The notes under the pieces are model-generated. The model did not search any database and was not told the DNA's origin. It saw nothing but the letters and a program-made list of their open reading frames with translations. From Balanoglossus misakiensis (lineage: Eukaryota > Animalia > Hemichordata): a stretch of DNA of 64,000 bases. The DNA lies in contig CM082590.2 in NCBI GenBank assembly GCA_040954595.2, forward strand, positions 7,068,001 through 7,132,000, given 5' to 3'. A program made the translations under genes and the position numbers. Positions 4,064 to 64,000 of this stretch are shown piece after piece (position 1 is the first letter of the stretch; each line of letters starts with the position of its first letter).

Positions 4064-4850
4064 CTACTTTGCCGGACACACGCTGCGACCTGTTCGCCGG
4101 AAGTGTAGCATGAGTTCCCGCTTCTTCCTCGCCTGCGGCGTCTCGTCTTCCGGCGCTTCCACCTCCGATGCCGGAATGCAGGTGCATTCCGTGATGATGT
4201 CCACCTGCGGATTGAAGAGGTGGTTGAAAATTAAAGGGACAAAGTGTCTCTCTCGCTGGCCTTTTTCATTAATTATTTTTGATACAAGACACCGTTTATG
4301 TTATTCTACATGTGGATATCTAGTGAATCAACGTTCGACCACACAGTACAACTTCCATCCCACTTGTAGACACGAGAGTGAAAAACTCGCCAAAATGAAT
4401 AATCGGTGTTTACCATTTCTTCTTTTTGGTGAGATGTTTACTCTCATATCCTGTAAAGGGTCTCTATAACGTACCATTGTCCATATATCTTTCTTTCACA
4501 GACTTCACATTGTGCTGTGTTTTTTGTTGATTGTCGTATCATTTCGTCTCTGTCTTTGCAACTGGCTGTATAAATACTTTATATTTGACCTATGAACTTT
4601 AGAATATAGATGTGTATATATTTACGTACCATCGTTTCAGCGACCACTGTGGTGTTGTCGGGGTTCACAGAGCAGTTGAGAGTGACCGGTGTGTTCTCGA
4701 TGGTCAAGGGTTCGCAGCAGTGGCTCCATTCCTGGGAGCAGCCGCCGCGACACAGACCGACGTTCACCGAGGCCGTGCAACCGTCGTCGTTCGTCACGTC
4801 CACGTAGTGCGGCATCATGCTGCACAGCAGCGGTTCCGAGCCGAAGAATT
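4064..4850 (-). CDS. Terminal exons: C-terminal cystine knot, RKKR and tail
   Basis: Exon 4630-4850 ([74 protein letters not shown]) and exon 4064-4204 ([46 protein letters not shown]). CxGxC...CCxP...LxC...CxC pattern. Confidence 0.85.
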
Positions 4851-7800
4851 CTTAAAAGACAAAAATTTTCATTTGTTACAACTTGTATGGGGGTCTGCAC
4901 ACACACAATTAAGACGGTTCTGAAGCGTCTCAGATCAGATACTGTCTTAAAAAACCATGTGTGGACGGTGTATAGTGGTTCTGAAACGTCTCAGATCTGA
5001 GACGGCTTTGCCGACCAGACCCTATATAGGGGTCACACACACACTATTAATGCGTTTCTGAAGCGTCTCAGATCAGATACCGTCTTAAAGAAACACGTGT
5101 GGACTGTGTAAGTGGTCCTGAAACGGCTTAGATTTGAGACAGCTTTGCTGACCAGACCCTATATGGGGGGTCACACACACACCATTAAGACGGTTCTGAA
5201 GCATCTCAGATCAGATACCGTCTTTAAAAAACATGTGTGGACAGTGTAAGTGCATGGTCCTGAAACGTCTCAGATTTCAGACCACTTTTCTGGCCAGACC
5301 TGAGCCGGTGTATGGATTAACACCTCTCCGCAACCCATTGTCTATGGGGCCGAGCCTCAGCGCCTATACACAAACTTTGTGTGTGTGGACGCAACGCGAC
5401 TCAAAGGATAAATGCTCTGAGTTTACCATAGGCAAATAGTGTCTCAAATTTTACCCTGTCTGAACCTGGTAATATTAAAACGCATCTTCTTTATCAACTT
5501 AATAAAAATCAAACAGATTAATCTGATAAAGATTTTAATGCAAGAACCTGGGGTGAATATTAACTGTGGTGGAAATAATGAGCTTGTCAAAACACTGTGT
5601 TTTAACTGGATAATAGGGATAGAAGATGTTTATGTTACCAATTGAAAACAAAATCACACTATAATGATATGCTTATTATGTTATTTATTACCCAGACATT
5701 ATCTGCACCACCTGACAAACTGATGTATACAGACCCATAACCCTTTCACCCCAGTTCCCTCTGTAAAGGTCCATTTTAACACAGAAAGTAATATATTTGG
5801 ACCAAACCATGGTGGTCAAGGGGTTAAAATACACCACCTGACAAACTAACGTATACAGACCCATAACCCATTCACCCCCAGTTCCCTCTGTAAAGGTCCA
5901 TTTTAACACAGAAAGCAATATATTTGGACCAAACCATGGTGGTCAAGGGGTTAAAATTGTCTCAACCTACCCTCATCACACCTTCCATACTTGACAACTG
6001 TAATGATTTCACCCGTCAAACAGGCCCTGCGCATCATGTTGCACTCGGAGCGATAAGTCTTCATTTCGTAGTGGCTCAGTCCACACACGGGGCTGTGTCG
6101 CGCCTCTGTACAGTCCGGACACTGGCACTGGTAGTCGCCGCCTCCAAGTGGCACACAGGTGGCACCATACTGGCACACTTGGTTGTTGTTACATTCACCT
6201 GGAATTTAAGGATGTACGTTTGTCAAAATTGAAAGTATTGTCATTTCTTTTAATTGTTGATTTTTGGATTATCCTGTGTATGTATAATGATAATCCGTGA
6301 TAAAATATAGTGGTCACCACGCTTGTATTTGAAATACAGAGCCATGAATTTAGTCGATAATACAAGAAAGCTGCTGACTCAGCATTTTCCACCAATGGTT
6401 TGTCTATGGGCTAAATTTTTAACGCAATTTATCTCAAAATAGAGCGCGGTGACCATATGATTTTATTTGTCCAATGAATTCATTTTTAACTGACTGAGCT
6501 ATTTGTAAAATTTCATGAAAATGACAATAGTAGAAGTTTGTTTTCTGGCGATTGTCAATGTAATCCTATGGGAAAAAGACCGGGCGCGCACTGTTTCCGG
6601 TTTATGTTCTGCGCGTACATCCTTAATTAGCCCGCCGTTCAGTTGACAAAAATGCAATCACCACCACAAAATTCACAGTGACGGATTAACCAACTGTGAA
6701 GTCACACCAGCAAAGAATATAGTAAGTCATAATTTTAGAACAGTCATGTGAAATTGCATGTGCAAGCTCATAAACCCCTTTATAGTTAAAATGGTTAAAT
6801 GTTCACACGACCACATGGTACACTCGCATAAATTGGGTTGTAAGAAGGTAAAAGGGGTTTCACATTTTGTATATAATTTTCATGACTTAATTCCAACTTA
6901 AATCAGTCCATCTAAATAAGCTTACTGATAGGTATACATGAACACCTTATCGATGCCCGATTGTGACTGCATGTTGCAATTTGAACACGCTATGTATTAA
7001 AACGGTGCCACACCGATTTATTCAGCTTCCATACAAACAGTGCACAGCTATCGTTGTATGCGTTGTCAAGAGATGACAAACTGATGCAAATAGTAATATG
7101 GCTTAATGATGAAAATTTTAAAGGATAGGGAATATATTTGAAGTATTTTATTGTGGAAAAAGTATGTGAAATTTGGCAGCTATAGCAGCTTTAACATTTA
7201 TACTTACATGGTATAAACTGGGGGCACATTTTAGCAACCTGCTGATCTACACAGGGTAAACCAAGTTCATTGGGTTCTTGCTTGACTGACCGGCTTCTGG
7301 TGACAACGCCCTCACCACACGTCACTGAACATTCCGACCATGGTCCCCAAGGGTTCATGACACAATCTGCAGAAAGAGAGAAATCCATAGCAATATTATG
7401 GATTTAACCATCTCATCTTCTGGTATTCTTATGCGTCTTTATATTTTGATAATTAATTACATTGAATTATATCAGGAAATAAGCTGAGATGCCAGTTATC
7501 ACAGCTCAAATGACAGACTGTATATATGGGATTAGCCTGAACATATTCCAATACAAACTTCTACATGTACTACTGACCCAAACTTATCACATACTAGTAT
7601 CTATGTTATGTTCACAGCAAATGTGACATACCGCTACAGTTCTTACACCCAAACCTATGTGCATTGAATTTCAGATTTCTGAGTAAATGTTTTCTTAAAA
7701 TCAGAATTAGACAGAATTTCGTTTTAACAAACTGGATAACTATTTGTCCATATGTCTTACTGCGTGAAGTTAAGAGACCATTACACCATGTTCACTGGGC

Positions 7801-8523
7801 CACATTAGTGTTCTTTATAGGCAGGGCTCTCGGCAGGCAATCTCGCTATCACAACATATTCATATACTGTAAAACAGGTTATTTTTGCGACAGGAAATTT
7901 TCGCGATATTGAAAGAGGCAACTGTTACACATGTTTCGCGTTCTCGTATTTCATTAACTACAATGTTATCTCTGAAAAACATTTTACGGGACTTTTAAAT
8001 TTAAATTTCACGTTTCTTTGGCTCTCGAGTATTTCGCGAAAATTTGTTACTCGTGAAAATAACCCGCTTTACAGTATAAGGAAGTTGAACCAGAGTAACC
8101 CTTCTTGCTATTCATGTTTAATGCACATACCTCTGCGGCATTGTCCATCGCCAACCTTACGTATTATTCGCCTGGACTTGCACATTTTATACTGCATGGC
8201 GCACAGGTCGACATACGTGTTACCATCGTCACCACACACAGCGACTATAAAACAGAAGGTAATAATAATTGTTGAGGTCTAGGAAGAAATTGTTATTTCT
8301 GGCAGCCCGACATATCCCACTTCAAATCCCGTCGACCGTTAACATTTTTTCTCCACCTGAAGCGAAAATCGCACTGGATTGTGCAAAATTAGATAAAATC
8401 GAAATTACACTTGACTTTAAATGTTTCATTTTGGTGAATTTCTGCCACATTTTCATTTCAATTTTGAAAAATTATTTTTACAAAATTAAAAAGAAAGAAT
8501 ATCCGACCTATCTACCTTATGTC

Positions 8524-8555
<32 letters not shown>

Positions 8556-10222
8556 TTATGTCATTGTTAGAAAATAAAGCAAGTAAATTATAATCTTCAT
8601 AAACTTAAGCTAAATAACGTCGGAGATAGTAAAACATTTTTGCCTTTTTGAAACTGTGATTAAGCTACTAAAAGAGAGAGAGTAATAATAGTAATTGTTA
8701 ACATATTCTACGTCAAATTCAGCTGACCCTAAACAAGATTGTGCAAGATTTGGTAAACATTGGATGTCAAGCACAATTCAATCATGTCATGCATTTTGGC
8801 TAAGTTCTGACATATTATTTTTTGACCTGGTCAAAATTTTAAAATATTTAAAAAATTGAACAAAAAACCAATTTACTCTAATTCAGGTGTGCATGATATA
8901 GGAGACATACATGATTTGTCTGACTTTTTTAAGAAAATAAAATATGTGTCTTTTAATCTTTATTAAGCTAAATAGCATGTCAGTCATGGTGAATCATTTT
9001 CACGTTTTTCAAACTGTGCTACTTACTGGCATCTGGTGGTGGTTCAGGGCATGGTTCACACACGCATATAGGTCTGCTGAACAGATCAGACATTTCACAA
9101 ACGGCGCCCATGCGACACACAACACCATCACAGGTAGCTGAAAGGAAACAAAATGGTCCCATTCAAACTTTGCATCCATAATTTATATTCCTTACGGTAA
9201 TTTTGCAAAGTATTCGCCATCTTGTTTTCATTAAAAAAAGACAACATTCTTCTCCATAGAGTTAACACAGAGAATTGGATTGGCGGCCATTTTGAATTTC
9301 AAATATGCGACAATTTGCTTTCTCATTACACACTGACCCCAAATTTCTTTTCGTACTTTTAAGATAAGTTAATTTAAAGTTACCTTGAGCAAAATAGAAG
9401 AAAAAGATTATGATTTTACAATTTTGATTATCGAGAAGTATACTACCTCAAAGAAACATATCAGTATACAATAGCTCTTTTTTATCTTAACGAAGATAAG
9501 AATAAATGTACATACGTTTGCAAGGTCCAGGGTAGTCGTAGTGGACAGGATGGCCACTCTGACATTTGAACATCATCAACTCATTATGGCTTAAGTAGGT
9601 CTGTCCATCTGTTCCACAAACCAAACCAGGGATGTTGGAACATGTATGTTCTCTGCACCTACACTCACAAGATGGCAGGTTGTCGTGGGTTACGACACAT
9701 GTCTTCAGTCCCGGACAGGGTCCAGCTAACCCACACACATCTGAAAGTATGAGAAGGTATGTTAATTAAAGGCAATAGGACATCTCACGTGCATGCGCGT
9801 AACTTCCATTCAAATAGTGGACTGTCTTCGCTTAGTTCCATATTTCATGCGCACCGTATAAGTAGATTCTGGTTTTTCCCTTCTTTTCACTCAAGCTGGT
9901 GTATATTTCATGATCTCCGACGCAGATTATGGTCGCCGCCATCTTCTCTGTTGTTATGGCCACACTAACGCTGAAATTATTCAAGACTACATGAAAGTGT
10001 ATGAGCCAAGAAAGTTAGGGCAGTTATACTCACAGGTGCATATAAATCCGTTTCCATAGTAACCATGATTGCAAACACATTGGTAACTCCCGTGAGTGTT
10101 TATACATTGAGCATTCGCATCACATAGATGAAGACGGTCACATTCATTGATGTCTGTAATTAAAAATAATGATATCAATATAAAGACAACAATAGTAATT
10201 GTATTTTTCAGAAAAATGATTG

Positions 10223-10255
<33 letters not shown>

Positions 10256-13200
10256 CAAAAGTTTAAATAGCGCTAAAATCCAAAACAAGAAATGTTGCCC
10301 AAAGACGCTCATGGTTAAACCACACTGTACACTCTTTTGAACATTGATAATATATGTATTCTTGATATGTTGAAATAAATAGCCCATATCTCGTATTCTG
10401 ATTAAATTCAAGCTTCGCTCCATGGTAAGGATAGCTTATATACAGCCACCTTCAATGAGAAAAATGCATTGGGACACAGACATATATGATACAAGTGATG
10501 CAGCAACTTACCCACACAAGTGCTATTGAATCTCTCATATCCACGTTCACACTGGCATTCATAGCCACCTTCCAGGTTAATGCATCTTGAATGAGGTCCA
10601 CACACAGCAGTAGCACACTCATCGATGTCTGTCAGAGCACAAGATGAAATTCAATTAAAATGTAATTAACAAACGCAATTGTTTTGCTATATGAATGCAT
10701 AAAGATCAACAGTAAAATCATCAGTATATCTTTAGAGCGACATAAATGCAATACTAAACAAATACAGTTTCTAAATGTCAATCACTCTCACTCTTATAAT
10801 ATGTTAATGTATGCCTTTTACGGTACGTCATTTGGATTTGATATTTCCACTGGCTTAGAGAAATTCTTCGATATATGAAATGACGTCAGACGCATTCAGG
10901 CGGCAGTTACGTTCGCATTCAAATTTCCAGATGACGGGCAACTTCAGCAATGTGGTGCAGACAAAGACTGTGCAGACGAAACGCCATGAGGCTGATGAGG
11001 CACCATACCTGATACATATTACGTGTCTGGCGGTTCTAAAGTAAAAACATACTCGGAAAAACTTTTAATGGATGCCGAAATATTGCTTGCCCATCATCTG
11101 TAAATGACAGCGCTATGGGACACATGGCCATATCACGTGATTGATAGTAAAGAATAAGAAGATGCCATTATGTGCGCATCTTGTTATCACTCACCGACAC
11201 ATAATTCTCTGTATGGATAGATGCTGTTCGCCATCTCTTGGTTTGTGTTGTTCTTGATGACCAGCTGATAGCCTTCCTGGCAATCGCAGTTGAACGATCC
11301 AAAGGTGTTCTCGCAACACTTGGCGTGTTCTCCACACGCATGAGGATCACCGCATTCATTGACGTCTGTAGATGGTACATAACCAAAACAGAGAGTCACT
11401 TAAAGGGAAATGTGTAACATACATATTTGCATATACGTACATACCAACACAACACAGTCTTTCCTCTCCCAGTACATTCATATCAGATGCTACACATTGT
11501 TAAGCACAACTGCCCACCCCAACCAACATTCATAACCACGTCTCCTGATGAGTGCATGAGTCAAGTATGTGACTCACGAAACAACGTTGTAGAGATTATA
11601 CCACCTATCGTACAAATGTATCTTCAGTTACCCTTACTTTAGATACAAATGCATGCATACCGGTACACCTTCATACATCATACATACATACATACAGACA
11701 CACACACATACATACATGTATACATACATGTATACATACATACATACATACCAGTACATACATACATACATACATACATACATACACACCACATGCATAC
11801 AAACAACATCTAAAAGGCGAGTTATTTTACCTAGACATAGCTTGCCAGTGCCATAGAAACCAGGATTACATTGGCAGTAATAAGATCCTATGGTGTTCTT
11901 ACAAGTTGAATGTTGAGAACATATTGCCGTCTGCGCTGTACACTCATCGATGTCTGTAACACATGAATGAGATAGTTTGTTCAGTGAATATTTGCACACA
12001 TTTCTCAACAGTGCTCAGGTGCATATCCCTGTTCATGAAATTACGTTTAAATGATATTTATACTACGTCTATATTTTGTAGTTTGGGATCTATTTTATTC
12101 AGGTGTTGTATACGTAATGGTACACTTTTTATATTTCTTTCTAATTCCTTGTTTCTTATTTCATGGTAAGCATCTTTTTTCCAAATTATAACTTTCATTT
12201 TATCATTCCCAGAGCTGTAAGTAGGTTTGCATAATGAAAAAAATATAAAGGGTATTCATAGCTTAAAGGTTTAGGTCACCTCAAATTTCTGGTACATACG
12301 CCCATATATGTCAGAAATAGCGTGTTTGACTGTTCGAAAGAACATATGGTGCCACTCTTTTTTTTCACGTGTGCCACCCACTGAAAATCTGTGATTTGCT
12401 AGATCTCAATTTGCCATGGTAAATTTAGCCATATTTGCATAGGTGACCGTATAGCTTGAATTCAATGGATTTTGTTTGAACACATAATAATGCTTACCGA
12501 CACAAGTTTCTCCAGAAAGTTCAAAACCCACATTGCAAATGCATTCATAGCCCGGGAAGAGGTTACTGCAGACTTCATGGTCATCGCAGACTGCATGGTA
12601 TACAGAACCCTCTCGTTCTGTACATTCATTGAAATCTGCATTGCGAGAAAGACAAATGCAAGCATATTCAGGATTATTTATAACCATTACAATTCATCCA
12701 CAAATCCTTGAAATTAGATAATTCTTAGAATGAACGATGCAGCCAACCGTAGCAAAGACCGGGCATGACAGCAACTGAAGATCCTAGAAGGTCGTGGCGA
12801 CTGCAGTCAGGTTTGTGCTGGTATTGGAGGACATATTCTCATCAAGGGGGGACACCCACGCGGCGCGACGACCCCTTCCCTTTAGCGTAGACTGGGCATG
12901 ACAGCAACTGAAGATCGTAGTAGGTCATGGCGACTGCAGTGGTGTTTGCGCTGGTATGGGAGGACATATTCTCATCAAGGGGGACACCCACGCGGCGCGA
13001 CGACCCCTTCCCTTTAAATATGACACAACAGGGGTACTGTCTACATATACTAAAGCAGATTGCATCACAGATTATTTTGTCTTTGAAATAGACGGAATAA
13101 ACAAGACAAATTTTGTATTACTGACCCGCAAATTATAACGAATGATTCTCAATCAATTTATTTGCTTTAAACAAACAAAACATCATTAAAGCCTCTAGAG

Positions 13201-37040: not shown

Positions 37041-37074
<34 letters not shown>

Positions 37075-55000: not shown

Positions 55001-58000
55001 CTTTCATATCCTACAAACATGATGGAAGTTGTGTGTGGTCGAACGTCGATTCACTATGTACATACATAAACGGTGTCTTGTATCAAACATAATTAATGGA
55101 AAAAGGGCAGCGAGAGAGAGACATTGTCCCTTTAAGCCATTTGGATTGTACCACAAGTACTACGGTACAGTTACTCGCTTCATATGGATGAAGTCCTGGG
55201 AGGACTTACAGACTGCCTAGTCCATGATCCATCTGGTGGAAGTCCAATATGCTGGGCAAAGTAGCACCCCCACAGGAGACAAAATTTCACTTACCTTTTA
55301 AAGTATCCGAATAATCCATGACACATTCCACCAAGAAGGGATCGTAATTTGCAGTTGGCCAAATAAGAACGGGTCCACTTTTGTAGCCCTGGTTGTACGC
55401 GGTATAACAGGTGGCTGGTAGATCTGAAAAGACAAACAGCGCAAAACATAATATTATTTCAAACATTCTGCACTTTGATTCAATGTAAAACACAATCATT
55501 TCACACATTATCAAAACAGTTGTACTTTTTAAAGGACTGGACTCACTCATTTAGTCACCAGTTTAGTCTCCTGATGAGTGAGTCCAGTGACTCACAAAAC
55601 AGCGTTGTAGAGATTAAACCGCCTTTCGTTTCTCCTACTACCCTTCTTTATACCCCGCTCTACTTTTGTATTGAGCACTTTGTATCGGACCAGTCGAACC
55701 GCATACTTCGTATACATACATACATACATACATACATACATACATACATACATACATACATACATACATACATACATACATACATACATACATAAAAGTA
55801 AACCAACATTCGTTATACTGTAAAACACTTTATTTTCACGATTTGAAATTTTCGCGATATCGAGAGAGTCCACAGTTAATTTTTGCGTTCTCTTATTTAT
55901 TTCATTCACTGCATCGTTATCTTCAAAAAAAAATTATGACTTTTTATTTTCACGCTATTTTGGCTCTCGCGTATTTCGCGAAAATATATTGCTCACGAAA
56001 ATAAAGGGTTTTACAGTATCCCTTACCAAATGGCTGGTGTCCACATCTAACGTCGCCAATAATTGCAGTAGCACTGGACGTGTCACTACCAAACACTTCG
56101 CCGAAATTGAGACTAGCCACGGGCAAGAGGTCCCTGTTGATGACCAACCCACTGTCATGGTTGGGCTCCGTGTCCATGGCGTCGCAGGTACACGTCTGGC
56201 CGGCCGGGCAGATGTCGAAGAGCTGACAGGGGCACCCGACGTCGATGTAGGACTCGGCCCCCGCCCAGGCAGTCACGGGTTGTCGGTCGTACGACGTGAA
56301 GTATCCCAGCAACGGGGCGTTGTCGTTGATCAGGTGGGCTCCTTCGCATTGGTATTGCAGAGGCTGTATACAGAGAAGAAGACGTTTAAAAAGGTACAGT
56401 ACATGATCTGTCCTTACAAGTGATAACCATAAACGGTGCAACCTGGTTCTCTTGAGAATATTAGGGTTGTTCCACTGTATTATCTAAAGCGTACTTGTAA
56501 TACAGAGCAATACATAGCCATATTTTGTTTACAAGCTCTGCAAAACTTCCTTCACTTATGCAACACTATTCTTCGATATCAAATGACGTCAGACGCGCTC
56601 AGGCGACAGTTAGATCAGCATTCAAATTTCCAGATGACGGGCAACTTCAGCAACGTGGTGCAGACAAAGACCGTGCAGACGAAATGCAACGAGGCTGATG
56701 AGGCACCATACCTGATACATGTTATGTGTCTGGTGGTTCTAAAGTAAAACATACTCGGAAAAACTTTTACTGGATGCCGAAATATTGTTTGCCCGTCATC
56801 TGGAAATGACAACGCCGTGGGTCACATGGCCAGATCACGTGATTAGAGAATAATGAACGCCCCAAAGACCCATAATGGACGAAAGCACACATTGTGCGTC
56901 ATAATATACGAGGCGAAGCCGAGTATATTATTGAGCTAGCACAATGTGTGCTTGAGTCCATTATGGGTCTTTGGGGCGTTCATTATTCTCATTATTTTAT
57001 AGTTTTGTCAATGCCAGTGAATTTGCAGACTTCAAAAAGTATAGGTGCGAACAATTCAGACTCGGACACGGAGATCGAGAACAGAGCAATGGCGTACGCG
57101 TAAACAAAAGGTCACCTGATCGCGGTGTATCAGTGTACTGTACATTTCTAGTATCATATTCAAACATCAGGAAATAAATAATGAAGGTTTATTAACGCAT
57201 GTGAAAATTCATTTAAGGGTTCTGCTGAAATATATCTGAAAAAGTTTCGATTTTTGTGTAATCTTGGGGATGACTCGGGGAATATTTGAATTCGTTTGCG
57301 TTCTCAGGAAAGTTCACGTATACGGGCGCTCGGAAGGTTGCAATACATAAACAAACTCGCCCTCGATCGACCCTCCGTACCGCGTAGACAACATGACAGT
57401 GACACTTGCGGCATATTTTTTTACGTATAGCTTCGTTGACATGACTGCTTTGTACATGGTACACGGTATGTATGGTGAACGAATGTCAAATCCAGCATCA
57501 TGGAGAGGTTTGCTTTACGTGCGTGAGTGAGCCATGTTGACTGCGCGTGATTCAAGAGCAGACGACATGTACTGCAGCCGTAGGAAGAAAAAATAAACAA
57601 AATGCCAGTCGAGGACAGATATAGAAATTAATAAATATCGCCGTATTTATTCTGTGTACGTTTGCATTTCTTTTTTAGCCCTTAAAATGTTCGCATTGTT
57701 TGAAATCCTCCGTTATTCAGTCGGAAATTGTACACGTCCACTGGTTCTTGGGCGCGTCGCGCGTCCATCGAATAACACGATACATTATCAGTAATAATGT
57801 ATAGCTATGACGTCACAAAATTCGCTGGTATTGATAAAGCTATAATATAATTGATAGTAAAGAATTATTATACAACTTAGCTATACTCTGAAATGTTTTA
57901 TTCTCATACACAGAATTCCATACTGCATTGTGCTTACATATAGGTGCTGTGAAATGTTTGGACTGTACCTGTTGGCAGAATTGCGAGGTCTGTGCCAAGG

Positions 58001-61000
58001 CTTGTATTTGCTCGTAGCTCGCCGCTTCATATTGGATGTCGTACACTGAATTTTCTGCTACCATGATAATGCTCTCACTCGCCAGTCGCACCTAAGAATG
58101 ATATCAACTTTGTCAGTGTATAGTGATGTAAAGACGAACACTTATAGGCCTATGCCAGAAAAGGATTAGACAGGGGATTGAGAACTAGACAATGAAGAAA
58201 GAGAAACCAAACAGTTTGCAAACGTTTGAAAATTTTACAATGTTTTAGCACAATTGATAATATGGTCAATTATAAAGACAGTCTGTTTGTTGTTTTGTTT
58301 AGGTCTATGCCACACTGACTCTCTTGCTCGCCAACTGCACCTACGGAGGACATTACTTGGGTCAGTACGTGGTGTTGATGCTATTAACAATGAAAAGTTA
58401 GGAAGTGTGAATTAGCAATGTGTTCAACTACAGAATAAACATCACTATGTTTGCTGAATAGCCTTTTCACCCCAGTTCTCACTATACTGGTCCACATTCA
58501 CCATAGAAAACAATACATTTGGACCACATCATTGTGGTGAGGGGGTTAATTAAATGCCATAAAAATCTTACCTCAGTAATTCCTATTCCACCAAATTTCT
58601 TAAAGTCACAGTAAACTTTGAACGGCTCAAGATCACCGGTCAGATCTGGATCGATTGCGTAAGAGTGGTCGCCATTCGGGTTGTAGTTCACTTCAGCTAA
58701 GAGGATTTCCCGGCAATTGCGAAGAAGTCCTGTGCAAACAGAAAATAGTTTATCAAAACAACTAAAATAACGGTCAAGAATTACACCAGCCTTGTGCATT
58801 GAACGCCATTAATCTGTGGCAGCAGATTCGACTTTTTATAAAGTTACTGGACAAAGACACCAGGGTGTCAAATTAAAGGGACAAAGTCTCTCTCTCGCTG
58901 CCCTTTTTTCCATTAATTATGTTTGATACACAACACCGTTCTATTATTGTACATGTGGATATATAGTGAATTGACGTTCAACCACACACACCTCCCAGGA
59001 CAAAGTCTCTCTCTCGCTGCCCTTTTTTCCATTAATTATGTTTGATACACAACACCGTTCTATTATTGTACATGTGGATATATAGTGAATTGACGTTCAA
59101 CCACACACACCTCCCAGGACAAAGTCTCTCTCTCGCTGCCCTTTTTTCCATTAATTATGTTTGATACACAACACCGTTCTATTATTGTACATGTGGATAT
59201 ATAGTGAATTGACGTTCAACCACACACACCTCCCAGGACAAAGTCTCTCTCTCGCTGCCCTTTTTTCCATTAATTATGTTTGATACACAACACCGTTCTA
59301 TTATTGTACATGTGGATATATAGTGAATTGACGTTCAACCACACACACCTCCCAGGACAAAGTCTCTCTCTCGCTGCCCTTTTTTCCATTAATTATGTTT
59401 GATACACAACACCGTTCTATTATTGTACATGTGGATATATAGTGAATTGACGTTCAACCACACACACCTCCCAGGACAAAGTCTCTCTCTCGCTGCCCTT
59501 TTTTCCATTAATTATGTTTGATACAAGACACTGTCTATGTTAATGTACATGTGGATATATAGTGAATCAATGATCAACCACACAAAACTTCCATCCCACT
59601 TGTATGATATGAGAGTAAAAACTCGCCCCAAATGAATAAATGGTAAAGAACGATTATTCATTTTGGCGAGTTTTTCACTCTCCTGTCTATAAGGGGGATG
59701 GAAGTTGTGTGTGGTTGAACGTTCATTCACTATATATCCACATGTAGAATAATAAACGGTGTCTTGTATCAAATATAATTAATGGAAAAAAGGGCAGCGA
59801 GAGAGAGACTTTGTCCCTTTAATGATTATTACAGTTCCTTTGATACGAGTTTCTCTTGATGCAAGGGGGTAATCATTTGATTTCTGGGGGGAAGGTGTAC
59901 TGGTATGTCAGCAATTTATTTCTCGAGCCATTCTGTTTCATCTGCCAATCAACCTTTTTTCTTTGGGGCATTGCATTATATTTTTTGGTCCATGGCACCA
60001 TCTGCCAACAAAGGTTTTTCCCTAAAAATCCTCCATCCACCTCATAAAATCAAATGGTTCTCTCCTGGGGATTCTACGGTTTATTATGTCTATAATCCCA
60101 ATACTGTAAAACACTTTATTTTCGCGAGTTGAAATTTTCGCGATATCGAGAGTGGCCACTGTTTCGCGAGTATTAATTTTCGCGTTCTCTTATTTCATTC
60201 ACTGCATCGTTATCTTCAAAAACAATTTACGTTACTTTTTATTTTCATGCTGTTTTGACTCTCGCGTATTTCGCGAAAATGTATTGCTCGCGAAAATAAA
60301 GTGTTTTACAGTATTTACTCATTTTTTTACCACGCAAATATTACCTGAGCATTTCAACGGACCAATCTCAATCTGCCTCAGTGAACCATCTGCTGATGAG
60401 GGATATCTGAACTCGCTAACAGGCAAGGTATCTTTATCGAGCAGAAGACCGTCGTCCACGTGGATGTCGCCATCAATTTGTGAGCACTGGCATTCCCCTC
60501 CTGCACACCCAACTCCGTCTGCAGTTGAAGTAATGGGTATGGGAATGAGAAGATGGGTGAATTGGTCGGCAGTATCGAATGGTGGTTGTTTTGAGTTGTT
60601 GTTGTTGTTGTGACTGAGTGAGTGAGTGAGTTAGTTAGTTAGTAAGTGAATGAGTGAGTTAGTTAGTTAGTTAGTGAGTGAGTGAGACAGTGAGAGTGAG
60701 TGACTGGATGAGTGAGAGTTACTGTGTGTACGTGAGTGAATATTAGTCAGTCAGAGATTCACTGAGTCAATGCGTGAGTGAGTGAATCAATCTAAGAATT
60801 ATTCCATTGCCTATTCTGTCTTTGTAGAACCGACTTGGCGTTTTATATTGACATGAGCATCCTTTGTATTATGGTATAAACACATGATGAAATAAATTAG
60901 AGAAGTTCCAGTCGGGGATTTGGCGGGAGGGGGTATGAACTATTTAATGTTCACCATGAGTTACTGGTTTATGAGTGCAAACAGATTACACTGAGTACCA

Positions 61001-62303
61001 TAAGTATTATTAACGTGAAACTTACAGGTATTACCAGCCCAGTACGCCATGTGTATACCATCCCTATCATACCATCCGTGGCCGCCATTCAAATTCAAAA
61101 TGGCGTCCTGGCAAGTGTAGGCCATGTACTGCGTGCAGTATGTTGAAAAGTTGGCCAGGGCTTCTAGCTGTGAGGGTGAGGCGTGTCTGTATTCGGTGGT
61201 AACCTTGCCGGCCTCATTGGTCAGATTCTTTCGCCCTTCATCGTTATGGTGAACAATCTGAAGAGATTAGCAGACGACACTTTTTAGAAGCGAAAGTGAA
61301 CAAATTTCTGTGATTTTGTAGTTCTTCACAAACCCCTTAATCATGGGTAGGAGAAACAGGCAGTATGATTAGAAGTAGATTTGGATCGAAATAATCAAAG
61401 GAAATCAGGTACAATGTTAAAGCAGAATAGTTGTAAATTCCAAATACACTAAAAATAATACACGGAAATTGTGAATCCGTAACTTGAAACTATAAACCTT
61501 GCACATGCAAGCATACTTTCCAATTACTTTGTCCGAATATTTAACTTTAAAGGTAAACGGTCACCTCCAATTGACATATGTCCATAAATGGCTAAAACGG
61601 CGTATCTGAGTGCTCTTTTATTTGTGTGTGCCACCCACTGAAAATCTGTGATTGGCTAGATCTCAATTTACCATGGTGACTGTAGCTATATTTGCATGGG
61701 TGGGTGACCGTATACCTTTACGTAACCAATAACACAACACAGCTTCTAATTGGTTAATAATGTAGTATGCAAATCAGAACCAACGTACTGTTACTCCGAG
61801 TGGCGGATACTCCATCATTTCACAGTACACCGGGAATGGGTCGACCGGACCATCTCCATCCGGATCAATCACCCAAGGCTCACTGGTGTGAACTTGACCG
61901 ATTGACCGACGTTCTTGGCAGTCCTTGTACATGTCTGTAGAAATTTGAAGGTCGTGTGAGAGAAGTTGTTCTTCATAAAAAATACAATCATGTCAAATTT
62001 TCATGTGGTTAAATATAAGATGCATGTACACCAATTTGTGGCATTTGGTTGTCTGACAGAAAAAGAAACTTTACAAGATTTGAAGAACTTTAAATGCAAA
62101 TAGACTGAAGTACTTACAAACACATACGCAACACTGGTTATAAGTTGAAGTAACTCAAACATTTTCAATTTTGTAAGTGACGACATTTTGCTCATATAAT
62201 TACTTATGTGGTTATTTATTCCAATTTCCAGAATTGTGCCTTTGTTTCTTCAAACTCTCTCTCCTCTCACACCTCACCCAACACACATACTGACACACAC
62301 ACA

Positions 62304-62351
<48 letters not shown>

Positions 62352-63114
62352 CCTTGATACTTACCAAACTGACCAGGCCCACAAGCCAGCCTGTCCAGTG
62401 TATATCTCTGCAGTTTTCGTTCATAGTGCGTGCCCGTCACGTTCTTCTCCGACACCCCCATGCACACTTTGGTGATCGGTAACAAGTCTCTGTTGACAAA
62501 CTCGCCATGGTCCAATCGTAGTTCGTCGTCGTTCGCATCACAGTTGCACGCCATGTCTGTGCCGCCGGCACAAGAACCTGTTTCACCACATGAGCAGTAC
62601 GGACCATCAGCAGAACCAGCCCAGCCTGTGGATCAATAAGAAAATACCAATTGATCAGAAATGATTTCTTTCAAGTTAATATATACTGTAAAACACTTTA
62701 TTTTCACAAGTTAAAATTTTCGCGATATCGAGAGAGGCCACTGTTTCGTGAGTATTAATTTTCGCGTTCTCTTATTTCATTCACTGCATCGTTATCTTAA
62801 AATAAAATTAAACGACTTTTTATTTTCACGCTTTTTTGGCTCTCGCGTATTTCACGGAAATTTATTGCTCGCGAAAATAAAGTGTTTTACAGTATATTAC
62901 TTTTAATAGTGAAAAGATTAATGAACATAAGTACCCTCTAGTACATTACAGCAACTAACAGTAACAAACTTTAAACTAAATGATTACCTGAGCCGAGATC
63001 ACCATCCGAGTCGTACCAGTAAGCATACGATTCACCTCCACTGTTTACAAAGGGGGCATTTCGACACTCCATCTTGGCATATTGCTTACAGAACTCTGAC
63101 ACATCTGTCAGACC
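4064..63114 (-). CDS. Giant secreted multidomain ECM/mucin-like protein (tandem Caspr-type fibrinogen-like modules, VWD-C8-TIL, ~60 EGF/cbEGF, follistatin, TSP1, cystine knot); 5'-partial, ~84 exons
   Basis: A chain of GT-AG exons with consistent phases runs from 63114 down to the TAG at 4064-4066. No transmembrane segment is seen before the stop. The 5' exons and signal peptide lie outside the window. Domain blocks are listed separately below. Confidence 0.85.
4231..4455. mobile_element. MITE family A fragment (TTAA/AGGGACAAAG termini)
   Basis: Same sequence as the left arm of the full copies at 41518 and 52046. Confidence 0.75.
4890..5395. repeat. Tandem array of about three ~130-bp hairpin-containing units, possibly a non-autonomous DNA element
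   Basis: Repeated cacacac...attaagacggttctgaagcgtctcagatcagataccgtctt...gtgtggac; outer ends gtctgcacacacaca / tgtgtgtgtggacgca are roughly inverted. Confidence 0.65.
5706..5955. repeat. Direct tandem duplication (~125 bp x2) containing a small piggyBac-like (CCC...GGGTTAA) MITE
   Basis: caccacctgacaaact...taaccctttcacccc...ggaccaaaccatggtggtcaaggggttaaaat occurs twice. The core recurs at ~16590-16680, ~38420-38490 and ~58460-58550. Confidence 0.7.
5971..6198 (-). CDS. Exon: follistatin/Kazal domain 3
   Basis: [76 protein letters not shown]; canonical splice sites, phase 1-1. Confidence 0.85.
6206..6626. mobile_element. TTAA-flanked MITE (Kolobok/T2-like)
   Basis: TTAA-GGATGTACG ... CGTACATCC-TTAA terminal inverted repeats. 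Confidence 0.7.
6875..7194. mobile_element. Partial copy of the TTAA-flanked MITE found complete at 13186-13538
   Basis: Shares catctaaataagcttactgataggtatacatgaaca...gaaatttggcagct...gctttaa with 13225-13538. Confidence 0.7.
7208..7366 (-). CDS. Exon: thrombospondin type-1 repeat (spondin-type)
   Basis: [53 protein letters not shown]; WxxW, CSVTCG and RxR motifs. Confidence 0.88.
7865..8076. mobile_element. MITE family B (~210 bp, TA-CTGTAAAAC...GTTTTACAG-TA; Tc1/mariner-pogo type)
   Basis: Terminal inverted repeats and CGCGA-rich internal palindromes; about 10 copies in the window. Confidence 0.75.
8131..9740 (-). CDS. Exons: follistatin/Kazal domains 1 and 2
   Basis: Exons 9516-9740 (...[25 protein letters not shown]...YPGPCK), 9027-9137 ([30 protein letters not shown]) and 8131-8244 ([37 protein letters not shown]). 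Confidence 0.85.
10034..19833 (-). CDS. EGF/cbEGF exon array, distal block (18 single-EGF exons)
   Basis: Phase 1-1 exons, mostly D[IV][DN]EC: 10034-10153, 10512-10628, 11195-11365, 11831-11953, 12498-12635, 13584-13709, 14076-14201, 14612-14734, 15109-15234, 15537-15659, 16019-16156, 16701-16823, 17272-17394, 17784-17903, 18180-18296, 18633-18755, 19267-19383, 19702-19833. Confidence 0.88.
10872..11160. repeat. Interspersed repeat family D (tttccagatgacgggcaa internal inverted repeats)
   Basis: Near-identical to 56570-56845; its reverse complement is duplicated at 37860-38285. Confidence 0.7.
12262..12455. mobile_element. MITE family E copy (TTAA-AGGT...GGTGACCGTATA)
   Basis: Matches 42248-42440 and 61547-61720. 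Confidence 0.7.
12675..13018. mobile_element. MITE family C copy with a duplicated ~130-bp terminal unit
   Basis: Two tandem gggcatgacagcaactgaagatc...cacccacgcggcgcgacgaccccttcccttta units; matches 52717-53227 in reverse. Confidence 0.75.
13186..13538. mobile_element. TTAA-flanked MITE (Kolobok/T2-like)
   Basis: TTAA-AGCCTCTAGAGCTG ... CAGCTCTGGAGGCT-TTAA. Confidence 0.75.
13778..13929. repeat. ~150-bp imperfect palindrome (fold-back MITE-like)
   Basis: cataagtctagtgccctcatgcagccatcttgaatttgaa... mirrored by ...tttaaattcataatggcctcatgtgggtacttagacttatg. Confidence 0.55.
15735..15921. mobile_element. MITE family A, right arm
   Basis: ...aaaagggcagcgagagagagactttgtccctttaa-like terminus. 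Confidence 0.75.
19431..19600. mobile_element. Tc1/mariner-pogo-type MITE (TA-CAGTCAAACCTGT...ACAGGTTTGACT)
   Basis: Terminal inverted repeats and TA flank; termini resemble 50417-50598. Confidence 0.7.
20450..29538 (-). CDS. EGF/cbEGF exon array, middle block
   Basis: Phase 1-1 exons: 20450-20587, 20981-21118, 21542-21664, 22166-22291, 22837-22962, 23715-23837, 24414-24533, 24987-25112, 25607-25732, 26194-26316, 26755-26880, 27201-27449 (two EGF), 28133-28252, 28889-29008, 29467-29538 (half-EGF). Confidence 0.87.
20675..20907. repeat. (TATG)n microsatellite
   Basis: Direct reading. Similar TACA/TATG tracts occur at 11680-11790, 36978-37120, 44026-44115, 49101-49352, 54148-54296 and 55711-55793. 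Confidence 0.95.
21243..21387. mobile_element. Small hAT-like MITE (CAGTGTTCTCCCCAG ... CTGGGGAGAACCCTA)
   Basis: Terminal inverted repeats; flanks ccttg/tcttg form a near-perfect 5-bp duplication. Confidence 0.5.
22400..22754. mobile_element. MITE family A, near-full palindromic copy
   Basis: aaggacaaagtttctctctcgctg ... cagcaagagagagactttgtccctttaa. Confidence 0.8.
23043..23251. mobile_element. MITE family B copy
   Basis: tactgtaaaacgggtaac ... ataacccgttttacagta. Confidence 0.8.
27515..27876. mobile_element. MITE family A, full copy
   Basis: ttaagggacaaagtctctctctcgctg ... gagacttattccctttaa. Confidence 0.8.
28416..28595. mobile_element. Tc2/pogo-type MITE remnant
   Basis: taccgttaaagtcattttataagac ... 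gcgacttataaaatgacttta inverted ends with repeated cgacttata motifs. Confidence 0.55.
29205..29414. mobile_element. MITE family B copy
   Basis: tactgtaaaacactttattttcgcgag ... cgcgaaaataaagtgttttacagta. Confidence 0.82.
29938..44384 (-). CDS. EGF/cbEGF exon array, proximal block
   Basis: Phase 1-1 exons: 29938-30060, 30663-30791, 31174-31302, 31732-31854, 32403-32525, 33077-33205, 33597-33713, 34146-34268, 35349-35471, 36037-36159, 36692-36814, 37253-37375, 37711-37833, 38498-38620, 39144-39266, 39680-39808, 40236-40382, 40851-40973, 41947-42201 (two EGF), 42806-42937, 43415-43543, 44139-44384 (two EGF). Confidence 0.88.
30155..30440. mobile_element. MITE family A, truncated copy
   Basis: Palindromic core and right terminus gagactgtccctttaa. 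Confidence 0.75.
32798..33042. mobile_element. MITE family C fragment, two tandem units
   Basis: Same unit as 12760-13018. Confidence 0.75.
34515..35335. repeat. Complex A/C-rich minisatellite (~60-bp higher-order unit built from AACAC/AAC)
   Basis: Recurring ...caaactcacattcaaacacaaactaaa[c/g]ggaacacaacacaacacaataaaacacatcacaacac... Confidence 0.9.
35527..35719. mobile_element. MITE family B copy
   Basis: Same termini and body as 29205-29414, reversed. Confidence 0.78.
37860..38287. repeat. Tandem duplication (~217 bp x2) including a family D fragment
   Basis: catagttagtattcttta...gcattgcctgtta[a/t]aaagcttat occurs twice. Confidence 0.8.
38927..39115. mobile_element. EnSpm/CACTA-like non-autonomous element (CCC...GGG termini, 2-bp TSD GA)
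   Basis: GA-CCCTTACAAA ... TTTGTAAGGG-GA with many subterminal [t]ctatag[aa] repeats; a related remnant lies at ~33315-33500. Confidence 0.6.
39918..40192. mobile_element. MITE family A, truncated copy
   Basis: Core plus right terminus gagactttgtccctttaa. Confidence 0.75.
41518..41875. mobile_element. MITE family A, full ~355-bp fold-back copy (TTAA TSD, AGGG termini; Kolobok/T2-like)
   Basis: TTAA-AGGGACAAAGTCTCTCTCTCGCTGCCC ... GGGCAGCGAGAGAGAGACTTTGTCCCT-TTAA; the arms pair over almost the full length. Confidence 0.85.
42248..42440. mobile_element. MITE family E, full copy (TTAA-AGGTATACAGTCACC ... GGTGACCGTATACCT-TTAA)
   Basis: Terminal inverted repeats with TTAA on both sides. Confidence 0.8.
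42940..43190. repeat. AG-rich degenerate microsatellite
   Basis: (GA)n/(GACA)n; on the minus strand it forms a long pyrimidine tract directly upstream of exon 42806-42937. Confidence 0.9.
44823..48958 (-). CDS. VWD - C8 - TIL - TILa/EGF exons (FCGBP/zonadhesin/mucin-type D assembly)
   Basis: Exons 48747-48958 ([32 protein letters not shown]), 47927-48034, 47273-47428 (TCGLCGDYD), 46596-46746 (FGNSW), 46170-46352 ([25 protein letters not shown]8), 45339-45547 (CGSACPLMC...[10 protein letters not shown]...CV...CGC, TIL) and 44823-44997 (TILa merging into an EGF end). Confidence 0.9.
45038..45257. mobile_element. MITE family C, single-unit copy
   Basis: tagggaagcggtcatcgcgcc ... cacccacagggtgcgaagaccaattccttttaa; degenerate terminal inverted repeats. 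Confidence 0.65.
45683..46098. repeat. (TACA)n microsatellite
   Basis: Direct reading. Confidence 0.95.
46903..47201. mobile_element. MITE family A, truncated copy
   Basis: Palindromic core plus right terminus. Confidence 0.75.
47640..47800. repeat. (GAGT)n/(GAAT)n microsatellite
   Basis: Direct reading; a similar tract lies at 60613-60790. Confidence 0.9.
48085..48296. mobile_element. MITE family B copy
   Basis: tactgtaaaacactttattttcgcgag ... catgttttacagta. Confidence 0.8.
49390..51603 (-). CDS. Three cbEGF exons between the fibrinogen-like repeats and VWD
   Basis: 51481-51603 ([12 protein letters not shown]...), 50199-50324 ([11 protein letters not shown]...), 49390-49512 ([12 protein letters not shown]...). 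Confidence 0.87.
50417..50598. mobile_element. Tc1/mariner-pogo-type MITE with demonstrable TA target duplication
   Basis: TA-CAGTGAAACCTGTCTAA ... TTAGGCAGGTTTTACTG-TA. The paralogous empty site (gttgaacaTAtgtgatagcatg) is at ~50765-50785. Confidence 0.85.
50874..51480. repeat. Tandem array of four ~151-bp units derived from a family-E-like MITE end plus the adjacent splice donor
   Basis: ccaattctttgaataccgtttggtggcacac...gtgatcatacctttataaactttcaatgtctgactcac repeated; units end at 51026, 51176, 51328 and 51480. Confidence 0.85.
51678..51893. mobile_element. MITE family B copy
   Basis: tactgtaaaacaggttattttc ... aaataacccgttttacagta. Confidence 0.78.
52046..52400. mobile_element. MITE family A, full copy
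   Basis: ttaaagggacaaagtc ... gactttgtccctttaa. Confidence 0.85.
52516..63114 (-). CDS. Tandem Caspr/neurexin-IV-type fibrinogen-like modules (one partial plus three complete)
   Basis: Module A (partial): 62988-63114, 62365-62625. Module B: 61789-61934 ([18 protein letters not shown]), 61026-61257, 60345-60518. Module C: 58572-58729 ([18 protein letters not shown]), 57969-58091, 56027-56363. Module D: 55295-55423, 54478-54659, 53982-54103, 52516-52673. Recurrent motifs are S..C.Q...Y.C, W[AG]G, CNCDA...D.G....+..LP[VI] and G...C, as in the contactin-associated-protein fibrinogen-like segment. Confidence 0.82.
52717..53227. mobile_element. MITE family C, full copy with a triplicated ~134-bp terminal unit (TTAA flanks)
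   Basis: TTAA-AGGGAAGGGGTCGTCGC ... GCGACAACCCCTTCACT-TTAA; units start at 52721, 52855 and 52988. Confidence 0.8.
53509..53852. mobile_element. hAT-like MITE with a 5-bp target duplication (CATGG)
   Basis: CATGG-CAGAGGTCGCG ... CGCGACCTCTG-CATGG; subterminal TGCGTCAA/TTGACGCA repeats. Confidence 0.7.
54793..55135. mobile_element. MITE family A, near-full copy
   Basis: aaagggacaaagtctctctcttgctg ... gagacattgtccctttaa. Confidence 0.8.
55816..56018. mobile_element. MITE family B copy
   Basis: Terminal inverted repeats; ends 8 nt from the exon boundary at 56027. Confidence 0.8.
56570..56845. repeat. Repeat family D copy
   Basis: Near-identical to 10872-11160. Confidence 0.75.
56846..57850. 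mobile_element. ~1-kb non-autonomous element: 145-bp terminal hairpin plus an internal/terminal inverted-repeat pair
   Basis: Hairpin 56846-56990 centred on GAGGCGAAGCCGAG. ttatagttttgtcaatgccagtgaatttg (~56997) is inverted relative to caaaattcgctggtattgataaagctataa (~57816-57845). The interior is CpG-rich. Confidence 0.6.
58873..59822. mobile_element. MITE family A copy whose left 119 bp is tandemly amplified
   Basis: ggacaaagtctctctctcgctgcc starts at 58879, 58998, 59117, 59236, 59355 and 59474; the last unit continues into a normal element ending gtccctttaa. Confidence 0.88.
60102..60313. mobile_element. MITE family B copy
   Basis: tactgtaaaacactttattttcgcgag ... aaagtgttttacagta. Confidence 0.82.
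61547..61720. mobile_element. MITE family E copy
   Basis: ttaaaggtaaacggtcacc ... ggtgaccgtataccttta. Confidence 0.75.
62684..62894. mobile_element. MITE family B copy
   Basis: Same termini and body as the other copies. Confidence 0.82.
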
Positions 63115-63559
63115 CTGTGAAACGAAAAAGAACAATTAAAAACGTTATGCACAGGTTACCCTTTGTTTTCTACTTAACAAATTTACGAACAAAGGCTATA
63201 TTGTTTGGAAATGTGATAAAAAGTAACCATGCATTGTTTGCTATGATTTACAGTGTAATACAAAGTAAACAACCCATATTGTTTGCAATGATGTACATTG
63301 TAGCAGTTACACTACAGTGTAATACAAAGTAACAACCACATTGTTTGCAATAATGTAGATTAATTGTAGCAGTTACACTTCGCGCATACTTTGACTTGTT
63401 AGCAACTGTGTCGTATGGGACCCACATGCGCAGATGCAGATGGGACGACAGTGTGCCCTTTAAGTCCATATGACGCACCACTGACTCAACAAACTCACTG
63501 GTGACTCAAGAAAATTATCCACACTACATGCAAAGGTATAGGGCTGACCCAGAGAAATT

Positions 63560-64000
63560 TGTGGAAATCCTCAAATTGACTCAAAGCTTTCAAAAATTAT
63601 GCTTGTTAGAGGGCACACTGGACGACACCCACTCTTCATCAACTTTCTGCATTGGTTACCAGTTTGTGCCAGGATCGATTACAAGATCTTGCTTCTTACA
63701 TATAAGACCATTCATGGCCTTACCCCACAGTACATTGCTGACATGGTTAATCGATATACCCCTTCACGCAGCTTAAGGTTTTGGGAAAAAGACCTTCTGA
63801 CAATAACACAAGTCAACTATGGAGGACGTGCATTTTCTTATGCTGCTCCAAAGCTCTGGAACTCACTACCTGATGACGTCTAGACTCTTTTAAGGGGAAA
63901 CTGAAGACGTTATACTTGTTTGAAAAAGCCTACAGTGTGTGAACAACCATCGGGCGCCACTGAACAGTTCTCTGGATATTGGCGCCATATAAATGTTTTT
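63560..64000 (+). mobile_element. Degenerate L2/CR1-group LINE 3' fragment (C-terminus of ORF2)
   Basis: LHWLPVCARIDYKILLLTYKTIHGLTPQYIADMVNRYTPSRSLR...GGRAFSYAAPKLWNSLP...FKGKLKT is the typical post-RT tail of L2-clade ORF2. It has in-frame disruptions and is antisense to the host gene. Confidence 0.85.

Follow-up and report, generated by a model that had tools for sequence, protein, structure and literature searches.

The question raised by this locus is whether one gene can encode all of the extracellular domains that lie along it and, if so, to what family its product belongs and what it might do.

A single giant gene

The window, by which we mean the whole stretch of 64,000 nucleotides of Balanoglossus misakiensis DNA that was analysed, carries on its minus strand 83 coding exons that run from 63114 down to 4064 and join into a single frame of 4,033 codons, closed by its only stop at 4064-4066. 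The exon borders were set singly, one exon after another, and the resulting acceptors are AG in 83/83 cases and the donors GT in 82/82, with introns of 243-1,615 nt. These sites are distinct from intronic decoys both in acceptor pyrimidines (10.9/15 vs 7.2/15, n = 2,074 decoys) and in donor match (5.1/6 vs 3.2/6, n = 3,013 decoys), and GC content is 48.7% in the exons vs 35.6% in the introns. A six-frame scan of the window for the EGF pattern gave 54 matches on the minus strand and 0 on the plus strand. Outside the model, the window contained no convincing domain exon: local HMMs made 93 matches on model exons and 6 weak ones elsewhere (8-14 bits). An earlier note on this DNA had described a protein of about 4,000 aa, open at the 5' end, and had proposed splicing its exons and scanning the product for domains. 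Both points are borne out, since the 4,033 codons are open, the gene leaves the window at its 5' end, and Pfam searches on single exons confirmed VWD, C8, TIL, TILa, three Kazal domains and TSP1.

That two or more adjacent genes merely mimic one is conceivable insofar as the EGF exons are mostly of phase 1-1, so that any splice combination is possible, the public hemichordate models are fragments, and our own model was read from genomic DNA alone. No intron exceeds 1,615 nt, however, and no internal stop or start exon occurs in the window, while the same domain order is found in 13 single proteins from other animals. The cluster of one short-form record includes 2,604-aa products encoded on contigs of 8.3-8.6 kb, most simply explained as spliced mRNAs; as these contigs are most likely mRNA assemblies, they support a single transcript for the short form, and a limpet transcript of 2,500 aa points the same way. 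We thus consider several genes extremely improbable and conclude that the window holds one real gene, as the earlier note had maintained.

Alignment of the window protein to Saccoglossus XP_006815282.2 begins at Saccoglossus residue 922. The approximately 920 further N-terminal residues of the Saccoglossus fragment contain EGFs, additional modules and a WSC insert, and the full acorn-worm protein is therefore probably about 5,000 aa long. The orthologues imply that the part upstream of the window would comprise some 900 residues or more, with EGFs, head modules 1-3 and a signal peptide. The head within the window is 59% identical to that of Saccoglossus XP_006815282.2 and 62% identical to that of Glandiceps XP_077996831.1. 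Secretion of the acorn-worm protein is predicted. In agreement with the earlier note, the 4,033 aa contain neither a transmembrane or hydrophobic segment (the highest hydropathy over 19 residues being 1.16) nor a PTS region (at most 30 P/T/S per 100 aa).

Domain order of the window protein

From its N-terminal side (all coordinates of this section are on the minus strand), the window protein enters with the C-terminal part of the fourth of a series of Caspr-type modules, predicted to be of the COLFI fold (62366..63114; assigned by module HMM and tree). It is followed by module 5 (58728..61932), whose fold is deduced from the predicted Glandiceps counterpart, module 6 (56028..58727), which has a weak Pfam COLFI match in addition to module HMM and tree support, and module 7 (52520..55421; module HMM and tree). 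Three calcium-binding EGFs (49390..51603) lead to a VWD domain (46699..48958; PF00094, E 1e-12 and 1e-13 on two exons) with a GDPH motif at 48924-48935, and then to C8 (46170..46698; PF08742, E 8.5e-19), TIL (45339..45547; PF01826) and a TILa/EGF domain (44823..44997; PF12714, PF12947). The rod proper begins with a proximal part of 12 EGFs, the twelfth with seven cysteines (37711..44384). There follows an EGF with seven cysteines and the ending G-H-C-x-x-C (37253..37375), which we call the signature EGF and whose extra cysteine (codon 37266-37268) is a candidate interchain site, and a distal part of 44 EGFs (10034..36814) that is collinear with the rods of Lineus, Macrostomum and a chiton. The tail consists of three follistatin domains, each recognised as Kazal_2 (9516..9740; 8131..9137, on two exons; 5971..6198), with a single TSP1 repeat (7208..7366; PF00090, PF19028) between the second and the third, and of a cystine knot with nine cysteines (4172..4850), of which the odd one, the first of the CC pair, is encoded at 4717-4719. 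The last stretch (4064..4171) has a furin-type RKKR site and then 17 residues with one cysteine. This end is absent from the 13 non-hemichordate orthologues, and its extra cysteine could serve as a cap or as a further interchain link. The order given by the earlier note thus holds throughout, apart from the TILa/EGF domain after TIL, which had been left out.

Five RGD motifs in the window protein lie within the ordinary G-Y-x-G-D-G loop of EGFs, and we take them to be chance occurrences.

Fold of the head modules

The earlier note had described the head as a tandem of Caspr-type fibrinogen-like modules. The first half of this description stands: an HMM of the module scores 156.7 bits on a Caspr-type protein with laminin-G and discoidin domains. 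The second half holds in part, however. A profile built from 81 module-bearing proteins has the collagen I C-propeptide as its best match, along its length, while its match to fibrinogen is confined to the first subdomain (about the first 80 profile positions). An AlphaFold2 model of a fragment of the Glandiceps orthologue (pLDDT 82) matched the procollagen C-propeptide both in Foldseek (E 3.8e-9 over 221 columns) and in VIA (Z 14.6, rmsd 4.5, 183 aligned; next fold Z 6.9), vs partial structural matches to fibrinogen (E about 1e-3, Z 4.7-5.3). Judged from these models, the head modules are of the COLFI fold and not of the full fibrinogen fold, so that 'Caspr-type' is an apt name and 'fibrinogen-like' a loose one. 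The same comparison suggests that the 'fibrinogen-like' region of Caspr itself has the procollagen C-propeptide fold; our literature search for this fold in the Caspr/neurexin IV module found no mention of it.

The two positions of the collagen interchain cysteines are not cysteine in the module profile. Since the modules are, in addition, joined head to tail, collagen-style trimerisation would not be expected. A prediction of four tandem Saccoglossus modules (AlphaFold2, pTM 0.77) is compatible with ordered packing. A quick tree of 64 modules sorts those of bilaterians by position, modules 2 and 7 sharing a clade (SH-aLRT 96), and places those of the window with bilaterian modules of the same positions, 4-7 (SH-aLRT 98, 90, 97); it does not sort the Trichoplax modules in this way. 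The module is also a mobile domain, found with SRCR, CUB/link, C1q and Ig domains, and in the jellyfish Rhopilema (XP_065055552.1) four copies alternate with runs of EGFs in a large protein of secreted type.

An ancient family under other names

With the Saccoglossus and Lineus proteins as queries, then local HMMs, and with 56 of the 150 listed phmmer matches parsed, we found the frame module(n)-EGF3-VWD-C8-TIL-EGF(n)-FS-FS-TSP1-FS-CK in at least 13 proteins from four other phyla. Long forms occur in Trichoplax H2 (RDD42651.1, 4,339 aa), Macrostomum (PAA83517.1, 4,265 aa), Lineus (XP_064643492.1, 5,886 aa) and the chiton Liolophura (5,476 aa), and nine short forms of 2,065-2,679 aa in Gigantopelta, Patella, Lottia, Lymnaea, Babylonia, Dreissena, Pecten, Mercenaria and one further record. 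The window protein belongs with them by its order from modules 4-7 onward, the positional orthology of these modules and the signature EGF with its seven cysteines. Seven head modules are present in 11/13 orthologues, the other two showing five and no signal-like N-terminus at their start. Six mollusc members have N-termini that are hydrophobic as judged by eye, GDPH is found in 11/14 full-frame members, and the Babylonia copy is without TIL and without the signature EGF. Additions at the N-terminus vary: Macrostomum has three C-type lectin domains, Lineus and the chiton have stretches that look similar by eye, and Saccoglossus has WSC; a search of solved structures with the Saccoglossus sequence matched the WSC domains alone.

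Among the 56 of 150 listed phmmer matches, there was no full-frame orthologue from an echinoderm, chordate, annelid, ecdysozoan or cnidarian; 20 matches were looked up by name, and word searches were weak (1, 3 and 3 matches). A published description of the family was not found in the literature covered, which took in parts of PMC4948705, PMC12549020 and PMC11452194; the main text of PMC4948705 does not contain 'EGF', 'Kazal' or 'Trichoplax'. On sequence evidence the family is thus an ancient one, reaching from placozoans to hemichordates, with no name in the literature searched. The architecture that the earlier note called unfamiliar is indeed that of no named family we could find, but other animals share it. 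In the databases the members from Trichoplax and Macrostomum are labelled fibrillin, and labels such as this, 'neurexin-4-like', 'contactin-associated protein-like' and 'uncharacterized' have concealed an old animal family.

The EGF rod and its length

Between the TILa/EGF domain and follistatin domain 1 there are 57 contiguous EGFs, with linkers of 4-9 residues, of which 43/57 carry both elements of the calcium-binding consensus, in line with the earlier count of about 57 mostly calcium-binding EGFs. The signature EGF divides the rod into 12 EGFs before it and 44 after it in the window, vs 20 and 45 in Lineus, 7 and 45 in Macrostomum, 25 and at least 43 in the chiton (which has a mis-modelled stretch of 115 aa besides), 22 and 19 in Trichoplax, and 0 and 2 in snails and bivalves. 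The distal EGFs of the window align repeat by repeat with those of Lineus (z 5.2, reached by 0/300 order-shuffled controls), Macrostomum (z 3.8, 0/300) and the chiton (z 3.3, 3/300), and collinearity is higher still for Lineus-Macrostomum (z 11.8), Lineus-chiton (7.2) and chiton-Macrostomum (6.4). A single gap falls at the identical place in the distal rod of the window whether it is aligned to Lineus or to Macrostomum. The distal rod of Trichoplax showed no collinearity with the bilaterian rods (z 0.1-1.4).

This repeat-by-repeat alignment indicates that the long rod is ancestral to bilaterians instead of being an acorn-worm expansion, and that the short form is derived. The window rod shows no internal periodicity, its best pair of EGFs being 65% identical against a median of 37%, which argues against a recent expansion. 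The constant distal count in four lineages, a small sample, may reflect slow change instead of selection on length.

Odd cysteines in the knot and the rod

The exons of the cystine knot have no Pfam match and a weak similarity to Norrin (E 0.06), and they match the C-termini of orthologues with E 1e-8 to 1e-11. The pattern C1, CxGxC, CC, CxC is present in 14/14 proteins (the window and the 13 orthologues). C2 and C7 have been lost jointly in 3/14, suggesting that they form a pair and leave the first cysteine of CC unpaired. This cysteine is kept in 14/14 and aligns to Norrin C95, which is interchain in the Norrin dimer, a proposed model for the knots of mucins and VWF (PMC3828517). Of the Norrin interchain positions C93, C95 and C131, the C95 equivalent is the one conserved in the family. 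Modelled as a pair without an alignment, the FS-TSP1-FS-CK end of Macrostomum scored 0.00 in complex prediction, which speaks neither for nor against a dimer.

The second conserved odd cysteine is that of the signature EGF, whose ending G-[HD]-C-x-x-C is found in 13/14 members, with a minor change of the loop in one of them, and is absent from the Babylonia copy; in Trichoplax a poorly modelled EGF forms a second one of similar kind. Snails and bivalves have kept the signature EGF and deleted all but two of the other rod EGFs. Most of those checked have an extra cysteine in the last EGF, which could be matched to an extra cysteine before the first Kazal domain. Further odd cysteines occur in EGFs 12 and 55 of the window rod, in the window tail, and in Macrostomum and Lineus, and any of these could absorb the signature cysteine within the chain.

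Relation to known extracellular proteins

The family shares with gel-forming mucins and VWF the VWD-C8-TIL unit with GDPH, the C-terminal cystine knot, secretion and a probable tail-to-tail dimer. Unlike those proteins, which have an N-terminal D1-D2-D3, a PTS spacer and three interchain knot cysteines, the window protein and its 13 orthologues have one VWD each, an EGF rod as spacer and one of the three interchain knot positions kept as cysteine, the equivalent of Norrin C95. The second link, provided by D3 in mucins and VWF, has its candidate here in the rod. With one VWD and one of the three interchain knot cysteines, mucin/VWF-style polymerisation as such cannot apply, and the odd cysteine of the rod is a different, candidate route to a polymer. 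SCO-spondin, hemolectin and otogelin are likewise giant secreted VWD...cystine-knot proteins that form fibres or gels. SCO-spondin, however, has a long run of TSP1 and LDL-receptor A domains, whereas Pfam scans, covering a set of the window exons and the orthologues, gave one TSP1 and no LDL-receptor A or discoidin domain.

With fibrillin the family has in common a long calcium-binding EGF array with one exon per EGF. The TB and hybrid domains of fibrillin and LTBP are absent, the window rod being made of contiguous EGFs and the orthologues having no TB match, and fibrillin lacks the VWD, follistatin and cystine-knot domains of the family. The earlier note had reported the absence of both TB and laminin-G domains, and neither appeared in Pfam scans of the orthologues. 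Caspr/neurexin IV has a homologous module, single there and in seven tandem copies here, and its laminin-G, discoidin and transmembrane parts are absent from the window protein and the full-length orthologues. Fibrillar procollagens share the COLFI fold, but the family has neither their triple helix nor their interchain cysteines, and the head modules differ from fibrinogen-related proteins in not forming a full fibrinogen C-terminal domain. Zonadhesin, alpha-tectorin and FCGBP repeat the VWD-C8-TIL unit, which is single in this family; MAM, ZP, NIDO, FCGBP_N and TM were absent from the orthologue scans. Acanthaster XP_022108975.1 comes close in having three modules of this type and VWD-C8-TIL-EGF units. 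It differs in that its VWD units are three in number and that it has SUEL lectin and discoidin domains, and is without the EGF rod and the follistatin-TSP1-knot tail; its domain set is like that of the sea-star footprint protein Sfp1.

A limpet mucus protein and the possible function

A functional context comes from P-vulgata_2, a 2,500-aa pedal mucus protein of Patella vulgata listed with a signal peptide, vWFD, 11 EGF, 2 Kazal and 1 TSP1, and present in each of the three types of mucus of all three limpets (Kang et al., PMC7333891). Its two published primers translate into six-residue peptides that occur, among 180 proteins, in the P. caerulea orthologue only, at 1331 and 1581 and in the right orientation. 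On this evidence P-vulgata_2 is a family member and the orthologue of the P. caerulea protein; it would be of the short-rod form, and its seven head modules, knot and family went unrecognised in the original study, which obtained no function. It is a minor transcript (FPKM 28) with a predicted 'cell membrane' location and no cystine knot listed, and was not among the five probes with a specific in situ pattern (PMC7333891), so that it could be a tissue contaminant of the mucus. Those hemichordate VWD genes that others have examined, a set not known to include this gene, are expressed in ectoderm and endoderm, have been read as encoding mucus glycoproteins and have been tied to muco-ciliary feeding (Simakov et al., PMC4729200). 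Orthology with P-vulgata_2 connects a gene of hemichordates with a protein from the adhesive mucus of limpets.

Our preferred reading, which we put slightly short of an even chance, is that the acorn-worm protein would be a secreted, disulfide-linked scaffold of surface mucus with a spacer of conserved length. The odd cysteine of the knot would tie two chains together by their tails, and that of the signature EGF would link these dimers into chains or a net. At 2.6-3 nm per EGF module, the 44-45 calcium-stiffened EGFs would keep the cross-links at some 115-130 nm from the tail, and the proximal rod, the VWD unit and the head would stand out as side arms binding glycans, other mucus proteins or surfaces. 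In snails and bivalves, with two distal EGFs, the net would be much denser. The polymer-forming mucus or fibre protein proposed in the earlier note thus survives as a secreted protein of mucus type, in keeping with the limpet orthologue, but not as one that polymerises in the mucin/VWF manner; the multivalent binding head that the note also proposed is a conjecture.

The same secretion and mucus evidence would fit dimers joined through the knot only, dumbbells of about 300 nm with two multivalent heads that bridge mucins, glycans, particles or cells in mucus non-covalently, the signature cysteine being capped or holding a partner protein. The lectin-type additions to the head (the three C-type lectin domains of Macrostomum, the WSC of Saccoglossus) and the low abundance in the limpet foot, which suits a cross-linker, speak for such dimers. 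We nevertheless hold them to be a doubtful possibility, as the signature EGF was retained when snails and bivalves deleted nearly all others and the EGF count is conserved on one side of it only, both of which suggest a geometric role for its cysteine.

It is also possible, though in our view unlikely, that the protein is an internal extracellular-matrix fibre or linker of the fibrillin kind, beneath epithelia or in connective tissue, with a head that possibly engages collagen, and that its presence in limpet mucus is incidental. The calcium-binding consensus in 43/57 rod EGFs, the procollagen C-propeptide fold predicted for the head, the fibrillin labels of the Trichoplax and Macrostomum members and the lack of a gland-specific in situ signal for P-vulgata_2 would all agree with this. 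Against it stand the absence of TB domains, the recovery of the limpet protein from every mucus type in every limpet, the two collagen interchain cysteines missing from the modules, and the combination of VWD-C8-TIL with a terminal cystine knot, a usual mark of secreted proteins that build gels and fibres at surfaces and in lumina. Even less probable is a tethered signalling modulator, in which the follistatin/knot tail would bind factors of the TGF-beta/BMP type or a receptor at a distance from the anchored head set by the rod. In its favour are the three follistatin domains, the TSP1 repeat and the Norrin-like knot of nine cysteines, and the GDPH of 11/14 full-frame members could split head from tail; these domains are, however, frequent structural parts of matrix proteins, and adult foot mucus would be an unexpected place for a morphogen sink.

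If the preferred scaffold is extended to the whole family, it would amount to a second, non-mucin network of mucus or glue in existence since the placozoan-bilaterian split, built on a VWD/cystine-knot scaffold and polymerised through the knot and rod cysteines. The 44-45 calcium-stiffened EGFs would be a ruler of mesh size kept from the protostome-deuterostome ancestor; shelled molluscs would have reduced it to two EGFs, yielding a gel that is dense and adhesive, and vertebrates would apparently have lost the network. We regard this joint reading as speculative and rather improbable as a whole. The long and short versions of the scaffold that exist in nature make the relation of rod length to gel mesh and adhesion directly testable.

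Neighbouring and intronic sequence

At the other end of the window, positions 1-2385 of the plus strand hold an intronless, 5'-open frame of at least 794 aa that is convergent with the giant gene. Its domains are a DZIP3-type HEPN (E 3e-47), a coiled coil, filamin and NHL repeats, and the product would be a TRIM-NHL-like protein with a HEPN head. In 11 introns of the giant gene we found a MITE-like near-palindrome of roughly 360 bp, with copies about 78-95% alike at 4230-4450, 15740-15922, 22397-22754, 27514-27877, 30154-30440, 39919-40192, 41518-41876, 46897-47202, 52044-52402, 54794-55135 and 58872-59824; within the last, part of the element is repeated in tandem, in 5.9 copies of 119 bp (58879-59584). 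The introns also contain many (TACA)n microsatellites and minisatellites with periods of 89-302 bp (4886-5300, 5706-5957, 34515-35338, 37861-38287, 50875-51481 and 52719-53119), and the 134-bp unit at 52719 seems to be related to sequence near 12840-13020 and 32750-33045. Finally, a plus-strand frame at 63548-63880, in the intron that lies upstream of the first exon of the model, resembles a LINE reverse transcriptase at its C-terminal end.
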